This document shows, piece after piece, positions 46,880 to 48,739 of a stretch of 64,000 nt of DNA. The DNA comes from Aplysia californica (Eukaryota). The notes beneath the pieces were generated by a model. It was not told where the DNA came from. It saw only the letters and a list, made by a program, of their open reading frames with translations, and did not search any database. How positions within the stretch are numbered: position 1 is the first letter of the stretch; each line of letters starts with the position of its first letter. The DNA lies in contig NW_004797362.1 in NCBI RefSeq assembly GCF_000002075.1, positions 396,369 to 460,368 of the forward strand, read 5' to 3'. The translations under genes were made by a program, and so were the position numbers.

Positions 46880-47550
46880 ATGAACTTACACTTGTGATTT
46901 TCAAGGATCAGTAATACTGATCAATACATCCTGAGCGGCTTTCTACTTTGGGATAATAAAATTCTTTCTATTTGTGCCAATGGTCTTCTTACACTTCTCT
47001 ACTTTCTAAATTCTAAAGCCACTCTCAATATAATTGTTCTTTCCTCGACTTCCACAGTCTCCCAAACACACAGAGAAGGGCGGTGCTCTTTTTCGCCAAA
47101 AGTTTACTTGGTAACTCTGGTGAAGGCCGAGGATATTCCCAGATTTTATTGAAGAGGCAAGTTGGGAGTTGGGAACTTAAAGACACCGCACACTGCACGC
47201 CAAATAATATGCGCGCTGTGTCAGTGCATTGAGCAATGAGCATTGCGCCTTGACTTGACACTTGACACTTGACACTAAAGGTATAGGCCAGGCCCATAGA
47301 TGTACACTATAGTATAAAAGGGGATAAAACTCTATGACCAGGCCTAATCTAGGCTAAGTACTGCAAGGCTTGTCAATTTTTTTATTTTAATTGTTGTGCT
47401 TGCAGTTGCAGGACCATTGCAGGTGGCGTGGAGTGTAGGCTAGGCCTAAGTAAGTATGTGTATAGAATGTGCATCTAGAATCTAGAGTTAGAGTGCACAC
47501 AGAAAAAAGGCTGAATAATAGCGTAGTCTGGCTCAGCAGGTAAGTCTAGA
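46880..47550. promoter_or_regulatory. Candidate promoter / non-coding first-exon region of the mARC gene, possibly shared divergently with TMEM70
   Basis: Perfect CAG|GTAAGT donor at 47540 (+), a second GTAAGT at 47450, and a - strand GTAAGT at 46888-46883. Also (CTTGACA)n repeats and TCTAGA/AGATCT-rich sequence downstream. No transcript data. Confidence 0.4.
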
Positions 47551-47955
47551 TTCTAGAAAAAATATAGATATCTAGATCTAGATCTAGTCTATAGCCATAG
47601 CCTTTATACGACTGTCAGTGCGACAGTGTACAGTGTTCTGATTCTAATTTAAATTCAATTAACGAGGTCTAGATCTAACTCTAGATGTAGAGTTGATCTA
47701 GAATATAGATTCTACACGCGTTGTAGCAGAGCTAGCGCCGATTCAGGTGATTTGGTAGTTTCATTCGTTTAAAAGTCCAAATCCAAAGCAGAATGCCAGA
47801 GACCCTGAATTGCCAGAAAATCAAATTCAAGAAAAGAATGGCCCTTTTCGGGAGTTCCCACCCCCAATTGGAACTAAAACTTGTTGGTAAATTTGATTGA
47901 GTCGAGTGTGTTGACGATGATGCCTCCCTTCACAATACAGTATTGCGGCTAAATA

Positions 47956-48739
47956 AATGTAGAATGACGCATCTGCCTGATTGGCTGCTTATTTTAGATC
48001 TAGTATTTAATGTGATTTCATCACATCCTGGGATACCAAAGACCATGTAGACACGGTCTTTGGGGATACACACAGACTATTTTTTAGAAGACAGCGGAGT
48101 TGCCAAAGATTCTCTGTACTACACTACACACTACACGATCTTTGGAGTTACCACATGAGAAACAACATGTTGGGTCAGTGGCTTGTCCTATTATCCGTAT
48201 CGATGTGTTTCGCACGTTAAAGTTTCACACTTGCGGCTAACTGCAGCACATTAGCCATGCTCTGGTGATGGAAGATCGCTTACATCGTTGATGTTCAGAA
48301 CAGTAAAAACGCTGATGCTTGAAGTTGAAACACGGTAAACGCAAAGACAATAAAGCGCGCTAAAATTGCCGTAAAGAAGAAAGAAGCCGGGANNNNNNNN
48401 NNNNNNNNNNNNNNNNNNNNNNNNNNNNNNNNNNNNNNNNNNNNNNNNNNNNNNNNNNNNNNNNNNNNNNNNNNNNNNNNNNNNNNNNNNNNGCCCGATA
48501 AACAATGATGCGTAGAAGAGATTTAAGCAGCAGCATATCAGAGCACATTACCGACACGTCTCCTGGAAAAGCATCGCTCCAAACGTTGTGCCTTGGTAGG
48601 TATATAATATACACGATTTTTGGTGCCTTGCGGTTGGCTATGTTTAGATCATTTTAGTCACGTGATCGGAGGGGTATCCCGGTCTGATGTCACACAAGAT
48701 GGCCGCCTTACCTAAAAATAGTTTGCGTCATTCTACATT
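47956..48739. mobile_element. TA-flanked MITE with 16-bp perfect TIR
   Basis: TA-AATGTAGAATGACGCA ... TGCGTCATTCTACATT-TA. Confidence 0.8.

Follow-up and report, generated by a model that had tools for sequence, protein, structure and literature searches.

Organisation of the locus

The window, as we call the whole 64,000-nucleotide stretch of DNA analysed here, contains two genes whose 5' exons oppose each other. The plus-strand gene has MOSC_N and MOSC exons and is one that we take to be mARC-like; the minus-strand gene belongs to the TMEM70/186/223 family. Two contigs of run X18, a run that we guess to be RNA and that is labelled as a second organism, part from the contiguous sequence at canonical splice sites. 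The MOSC exon ends at a GTAAGT donor at 47450 and is spliced to 52297; the minus-strand contig covers 46890-47048 before a canonical splice to 36463, and poly(A) reads thinly cover that exon to at least 47068. With their 5' exons opposed, the two genes share a promoter in head-to-head arrangement; the exons as seen stand no more than about 200 bases apart. Thus, the promoter that a sequence-only reading of this DNA had proposed here is real. Three poly(A) runs, whose depth is very low over 47348-47834, gave no splice joints for either gene. The features of the locus are listed below, with "probable scar" used in the sense argued in later sections.

46442..46487, 46-bp probable scar whose P family is a third one (CACAGA), carried in by another repeat
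46890..47068, minus strand, 5' exon (as far as seen) of the TMEM70/186/223-family gene, from a run X18 contig and poly(A) reads
47274..47449, plus strand, 5' exon (as far as seen) of the MOSC-domain gene, from a run X18 contig
47287..47294, left target duplication of E1
47295..47336, E1, 42-bp probable scar of a CATAGA P family whose target-site duplications (TSDs) measure 8 bp
47300..47317, plus strand, upstream ORF 1, 5 codons, ATG within E1
47334..47357, plus strand, upstream ORF 2, 7 codons, ATG from the last bases of E1
47337..47344, right target duplication of E1, with a different first base in the window and without mismatch in runs X5, X8 and X18
47944..48754, host repeat, a non-autonomous TIR element whose left tip is eroded in the window
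48030..48036, left target duplication of E2, single copy in 29/29 paralogs
48037..48062, E2, 26-bp palindromic probable scar of a CAAAGA family with 7-bp TSDs
48063..48069, right target duplication of E2
48097..48103, left target duplication of E3, host consensus GAGATAC
48104..48144, E3, probable scar of the 7-bp family (that of E2), carried in by the host repeat
48145..48151, right target duplication of E3
48595..48622, further probable scar, one-ended, 7-bp family, between GTGCCTT repeats at 48588-48594 and 48623-48629
52297..52504, plus strand, region of the MOSC gene's second exon (mapped without its end), with an ATG at 52352

E1 lies inside the 5' exon of the MOSC gene, and both ATGs of that exon come from it; an empty allele would have none, and the gain of these two upstream ATGs is the only promoter change evident at the locus. 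E2 and E3 lie within the first intron of the same gene. Just inside that intron, 47470-47710 is dense in TCTAGA/AGATCT, with 13 CTAG per kb vs 0-7 elsewhere, and runs like these are also found upstream of P transposase frames. A strongly transcribed repeat, with reads from other copies, lies inside the MOSC gene at 53679-54652. On the other side of the promoter, inverted GACACCCC/GGGGTGTC repeat blocks (44239-44400 and 46060-46165) flank a 1.7-kb CAG/CAA-rich tandem region; they likely terminate a further non-autonomous element, one lying in the minus-strand gene's first intron. The ORF listing and tandem-repeat scans of the window gave nothing further on the inserts.

The three inserts and their host repeat

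E1, E2 and E3 have the termini and flanking repeats first noticed from the sequence, at the same coordinates. They had all been called hairpins, a description that suits E2, a near-palindrome whose arms match at 11/12 bp; the arms of E1 and E3 measure only 6 and 7 bp, so E2 is the one real hairpin. The flanking duplication is 8 bp with one mismatch at E1, 7 bp and perfect at E2, and 7 bp with one mismatch at E3. Position 47337 is G in three other runs (X5, X8 and X18), and the E1 duplication is therefore perfect in them. The window holds four CA[AT]AGA..TCT[AT]TG pairs, three of them with a 7-8 bp duplication at one mismatch or fewer. A strict scan returned two matches, E1 and E2, with E3 failing through its one mismatch, and it returned none in any of 100 Markov shuffles of the window. 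The window had been thought to hold no other TSD-flanked example, yet there are two more, at 46442-46487 and 48595-48622, the latter shared with the host paralogs L004, L018 and L022.

The repeat that contains E2 and E3 has 40 or more scored copies genome-wide. Its paralogs are about 0.66 kb long, with ACATG ends and 9-bp duplications (read by eye), and on TSD length we presume it to be Mutator-like. In 29/29 aligned paralogs E2 is absent and GGGATAC is single, as expected if GGGATAC is a duplicated target, and the window copy is longer there by 33 bases (26 + 7). E3, whole or partly deleted, is present in 29/29 aligned copies, a set biased towards E3-filled copies because the search was seeded with E3-bearing sequence. 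E3 was therefore inherited with the host repeat, and is uninformative on the targeting of this promoter; of the three insertions claimed for the locus, E1 and E2 remain. The empty state of E3 was found as a host copy with a single GAGATAC in a contig of run X6, so that paralogous host copies provide empty sites for both E2 and E3. At the locus itself, contigs of four runs gave neither an empty E1 or E2 allele nor a long (filled) allele at a scar; contigs of run X8 span E1 and E2+E3 with the inserts present, and E1 is also in X18 (one locus).

The host site of E3 is occupied differently in other copies: by a reversed 27-bp scar (L283, doubled in L296), or by a reversed 38-39 bp scar with different filler (L024, L025 and L030). 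At one host site there are thus no fewer than three distinct scars (39 bp forward, 27 bp reverse and 38-39 bp reverse), besides the empty form. The scars of L030, L283 and L296 are in reversed orientation; L283, L293, L296 and L297 are reversed scars inside host copies, and L299 is a long element.

Short forms across the genome

E1 matches 39 other scored places with exact boundaries, and its strict pattern has 103 copies genome-wide. The E2 palindrome has 41 loci within 3 mismatches, the underlying 26-mer occurs exactly at 4 loci, and separate searches with the tips gave 563 matches for the E1 left tip, 59 for the tip that we call B and 382 for a second tip of the same family, A. Each reversed control gave 0, and the predicted genome-wide excess over chance is therefore present. 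In an untargeted strict scan of 1.09 Mb of repeat-rich loci there were 13 matches vs 0 in 5 controls. An 8-bp duplication with one mismatch or fewer flanks 30/30 fetched E1 copies (22 perfect; the window copy and one local duplicate included), and a 7-bp duplication at 0-1 mismatch flanks 14/18 E2-family copies, some of them local duplicates.

Sizes in the E1 family are bimodal among the first 100 of the 563 left tips, of which 54 are short (17-59 bp), one is 155 bp and 23 are at least 1.3 kb; the other 22 are unresolved, most running on into parent sequence. When each distinct pair of flanks is counted once, the short E1 sites number 52 (one doubtful 56-bp entry, L220, included), with 35 junction types; the 40-bp form accounts for 10 of the 52, and 11 have two or more TSD mismatches. 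The target motif of the E1 family is palindromic and wider than the TSD, with T at -3 in 22/30 and A at +3 in 23/30, and the TSD itself begins with G in 18/30 and ends with C in 22/30.

The inserts had also been proposed to mark promoters, a claim that found no genome-wide support: 25 E1 scars did not differ from sequence about 5 kb away in CpG o/e (p = 0.51), GC (p = 0.32) or CTAG density (p = 0.50); these measures are a weak proxy where, as in this genome, clear CpG islands are lacking. Two locally made scars, E1 and E2, within 0.8 kb would fit a hot spot, at one locus chosen post hoc.

Several further arrangements were seen. Four scars lie within 5.3 kb in L325 (L325:2441-7711). From L216:255 onward (G000:C12 near 1914701), matching 8-bp repeats enclose an E1-family left tip fused with a CACAGA-family tip, which suggests either joint cutting of ends from two families, as a single unit, or the insertion of one element beside the other. 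Other putative scar families have CAAGGA ends (25 bp, 8-bp TSD) or CAGAGA ends (19-39 bp, 7-bp TSD) (L165:7198, L166:6477, L348:7023, L216:3686 and L236:161). Microsatellites begin exactly at tips, as (CTA)n from the A tip and (CA)n after 22 nt of the E1 tip (L320:5300-5340; L219:201 onward).

Parent elements and their transposases

Longer elements with the same ends do exist, as the sequence-only reading had anticipated. These parents, of 1.1-3.4 kb, have the tips and the 8- or 7-bp duplications of the short forms, and 24 of the first 100 listed E1 ends belong to longer elements with matching duplications (one of them the 155-bp form). B tips stand at both ends of elements of 2,467 bp (L198) and 3,413 bp (L180), and an element of 1,083 bp (L282) pairs an A tip with a B' tip, all with perfect duplications. 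E2 is therefore B+B and E3 is A+B', and the two belong to one family. The E1 family is distinct from it in its parents and in its 8-bp rather than 7-bp TSD. Snap-back synthesis from one tip had been entertained as the origin of the E2 palindrome, and was dropped in view of the parents that carry a B tip at either end. Across copies, the outer 16-22 bases appear as a swappable module, with either tip type on either subterminal arm (L165:7007-7042, L328:7720, L279, L286 and L198).

The parent ends (CATAGA, CAAAGA, CACAGA and CAGAGA) are short TIRs that start with CA, and the genome has 83 matches to the P transposase domain PF21787, about 60 of which were fetched. At L165, a 719-aa open frame carries PF12017, PF21787, PF21788 and PF21789 (P HTH, RNase H, GTP-binding), the element ends in the E1 right tip, and E1 parents align on both sides of the transposase at 70-92% identity away from the tips; an upstream exon aligns to L164 by tblastn, L165 lying outside the set scanned for THAP. 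At L328, an E1 left tip lies behind a transposase piece that is 87% identical. The A/B family is linked to a transposase through one locus, L320, where A/B parents align on both sides of a decayed P transposase, with one deletion junction in common. L320 has a PF21787 match and tblastn similarity to L170 over residues 16-851, in pieces, and L281 carries an A/B-parent match to L320 further inward; L320 is the putative A/B transposase locus, where the match could in principle still be a nested unrelated fragment. These alignments show the parents to be internal deletions of P/THAP9-like transposase elements in this genome. Cognate transposases are thus in hand for both families, and a P-superfamily origin is borne out by the CA ends, the 7-8 bp TSDs and the domain-bearing transposases within E1-type ends.

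The partners found are disrupted or gapped (L165/L348, L328 and L320; in L165 the 5' tip is disrupted and there are N gaps), and the roughly 60 of 83 PF21787 places included no intact autonomous partner of the E1 or E2/E3 family. A tblastn search with 14 transposase frames found no transposase inside the B-end and E1-end loci, and a DNA search with L198 had no overlap with the listed transposase places (compared by eye). Other transposase-bearing elements have CATAGA ends with 8-bp duplications or CAGAGA ends with 7-bp duplications (8-bp at L163, L164, L167, L309 and L324; 7-bp at L315 and L327). CACAGA-family tips flank a transposase in L160, where two CACAGA ends are without matching duplication. 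One young P family of 5.0-5.2 kb has perfect 8-bp duplications (L163:1699-6870, L164:1772-6869 and L309:3130-8162) and an 892-aa open frame with five Pfam domains (L164); L163 and L164 are 100% identical over 710 aa, and this family is possibly still active.

Junctions and the origin of the short forms

The short forms keep only the tips between TSD copies, joined at microhomology or through templated filler, and lack the CGTACG-like subterminal block of both parent ends. Their lengths can be built from the parents. For example, 16+16-6 gives the 26-mer, the E2 consensus, from which E2 itself (two 16-nt B tips overlapping at GTATAC) differs by 2 later substitutions; 17+13-3 gives the 27-mer underlying E3, 19+23-2 the 40-mer, and 18+18-2 the 34-mer of the third (CACAGA) family, identical at 3/3 sites. 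E3 is this 27-mer with a repeated ACTAC-type filler, that is 17 nt of the A tip, copied filler and the B' tip, and E1 is a left tip of about 19-20 nt plus a right tip, with a later 2-bp gain. The commonest 40-bp join occurs on several right-arm subfamily variants that are also present in long parents, which points to repeated formation rather than copying.

We consider it probable that E1, E2 and E3 are end-joined excision scars of P-superfamily (THAP9-like) elements, and not mobile units. They had been described as minimal elements or footprints; the evidence favours footprints over self-mobile minimal elements. This reading argues back from end products rather than from an observed excision or a cutting assay. 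The donors would be parents of the kind described above, internally deleted from transposase-bearing elements and with the same tips and duplications. If Drosophila P is a guide, one strand would be cut at the element end and the other inside it, so that the flanks keep 3' tails of tip sequence. The host would then join the tails at microhomologies of 1-6 bases, sometimes after copying bases, as polymerase theta does, and the resulting scar, being without subterminal sequence, would stay put unless a host repeat carries it, as with E3. An origin as hAT footprints was rejected: a hAT scar holds inverted flanking DNA and keeps no transposon sequence, and the scars here are transposon tips between intact copies of the TSD. 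If they are scars, these short inserts preserve a record of earlier end joining in the germline; the majority fall below the length that repeat libraries need.

The inner edge of the short forms

The terminal motif is repeated inside the parent ends, as CTAGA, which follows 20-21 bases at the E1 left end (depending on subfamily) and 22 at the E1 right end, as CAAGA after 16-17 bases (B and A) and as TAGA after 18 (CACAGA family). Left sequence past this internal motif is kept in 1/52 short E1 forms (L221) and right sequence in 0/52, a second left-side flag (L255) being copied filler, and 0/47 short A/B entries pass it (a count that includes host-borne copies and takes each palindrome once per strand). 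At five sites (L199, L213, L219, L220 and L075) the tip sequence extends precisely as far as the C preceding TAGA, where foreign sequence takes over; this edge C is position 21 or 22 by subfamily. B-end scars keep 16-17 nt, within a Drosophila-type 17-nt tip limit that the CACAGA family (18 nt) and the E1 family (21-23 nt) exceed. In addition, a 4-base homology, CTAG, lies just inside the edge on both E1 ends. Were it exposed on both, a join there would be expected often; the genome has 0 copies of it, vs about 40 exact 40-bp joins among 100 listed (by eye).

These edges suggest that the inner cut would fall just before the internal (A/T)AGA echo of the terminal motif, leaving tails of about 17 nt (B), 17-18 nt (A), 18 nt (CACAGA), 21-22 nt (E1 left) and 23 nt (E1 right). 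On the strength of the sequences, we moderately favour a stagger that is specific to family and end. We lean slightly towards the fuller proposal, in which the P stagger varies, the inner cut falls between a base N and (A/T)AGA to give tails of 17-23 nt, the scars reveal the cut site, and they make up a large unannotated class that adds upstream ATGs to promoters and seeds microsatellites. If true, natural scars would read out the cut site of each family without biochemistry, with a sharp prediction for second-cut choice.

The same edges bear on another origin, in which aborted homology-directed gap repair or random internal deletion made the excision products, with a fixed 17-nt tail and re-synthesis accounting for the 21-23 nt edge. 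Long internal deletions are common in these families, an indication that gap repair operates in them, and a few intermediates occur (59, 80 and 155 bp). Many E1 left arms reach no further than 16-19 nt, and arm lengths are made imprecise by microhomology; a fixed 17-nt tail with short re-synthesis is therefore possible. However, arms end at the same C in each subfamily although its position is 21 or 22, the commonest joins require 22-23 nt of the right tip, and the CTAG join is absent genome-wide. We regard this origin as unlikely.

Are the short forms mobile units?

Alternatively, the short forms could be ultra-small MITEs that P transposases moved as units. Clean duplications would follow from this, as would the recurrence of identical copies (the 26-mer at 4 exact loci, ten 40-bp forms in 52, three 34-mers); such recurrence of the 40-bp form and of the 26- and 34-bp palindromes would be expected from self-mobile miniature elements too, and counts against excision scars. 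Tandem copies stacked at one target, with three copies of one target word, occur at L109 and L296. Short and long E1 forms also have similar target consensus, which is expected under either reading. Yet lengths of 17-59 bp and 35 junction types in 52 sites are far from uniform, one join is found on several parent backgrounds, and lengths follow tip plus tip minus microhomology. The CGTACG-like subterminal block is gone, with subterminal sequence kept on the left in 1/52 and on the right in 0/52, and a single host site carries different scars. Movement as units therefore seems very unlikely to us. Chance hairpins between chance repeats, or replication slippage unrelated to transposons, might be suggested by the 6-7 bp arms of E1 and E3 in a region rich in short palindromes, and are refuted by 103, 41, 59, 563 and 382 genome-wide matches vs 0 in each reversed control by 8-bp duplications (one mismatch or fewer) in 30/30 fetched E1 copies, and by 0 matches of the strict scan in 100 shuffles of the window.

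Comparison with known systems

The excision scars proposed here have their closest counterpart in Drosophila P. On one strand, the Drosophila P transposase makes its cut 17 bp in from the element end, at each end, and long 3' tails result (PMC7776569). This 17-nt stagger is its signature oddity. Drosophila P donor sites heal as tip-to-tip joins with microhomology or templated filler (PMC2895639, Table 1). The junctions here have the same order of TSD, left tip, right tip and TSD, the same short microhomology joins, blunt joins and filler copied from nearby, and very short forms whose join lies close to the base of the tips; the 34-mer, joined at TA, has its parallel in the (TA) row of that table (PMC2895639). 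Unlike those excision products, the inserts here are natural and number tens to hundreds in one genome, and their ends are often unlike each other. E1-family tips are 21-23 nt rather than 17 nt, 7-bp TSDs occur besides 8-bp ones, and (A/T)AGA marks the edge.

Zebrafish Pdre2/zfTHAP9 is similar in its THAP9-type transposase, short TIR starting with CA, 8-bp TSD and many internally deleted copies (bioRxiv 10.1101/2024.03.22.586318). In cell assays, however, zebrafish THAP9 excision gives large flanking deletions and not neat scars (bioRxiv 2024.03.22.586318); the scars here are precise and short, a difference that counts against reading them as excision products. The available part of that report gives no mapped stagger for zfTHAP9. 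The literature searched (subscription journals mostly outside it) gave no stagger mapping for other P/THAP9 families, and nothing on point for natural P footprints or other staggers.

Galileo, another member of the P superfamily, has a palindromic target motif, and its TSDs, of 7 bp or in rare cases 8 bp, have a consensus like GTANTAC (PMC4168063). Many E2/E3-family targets likewise read GT...AC. This is a likeness in target sites; Galileo has long foldback TIRs, unlike the short forms here, and the available text describes no scar families for Galileo or 1360 (PMC4168063). P-related MITEs of Anopheles (PMC1562414) and BuT5 (PMC3698922) are non-autonomous and share ends with autonomous partners, and in this they resemble the 1.1-3.4 kb parents. 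The 17-59 bp forms are far shorter than those MITEs, with heterogeneous centres and without subterminal regions.

The elements described here belong to the P superfamily (THAP9-like), with its transposase domains, 7-/8-bp TSDs, CA TIRs and palindromic target. Excision scars of this kind are already known; what is added here is their link to parents and transposases, their genome-wide numbers and a proposed rule for the stagger.
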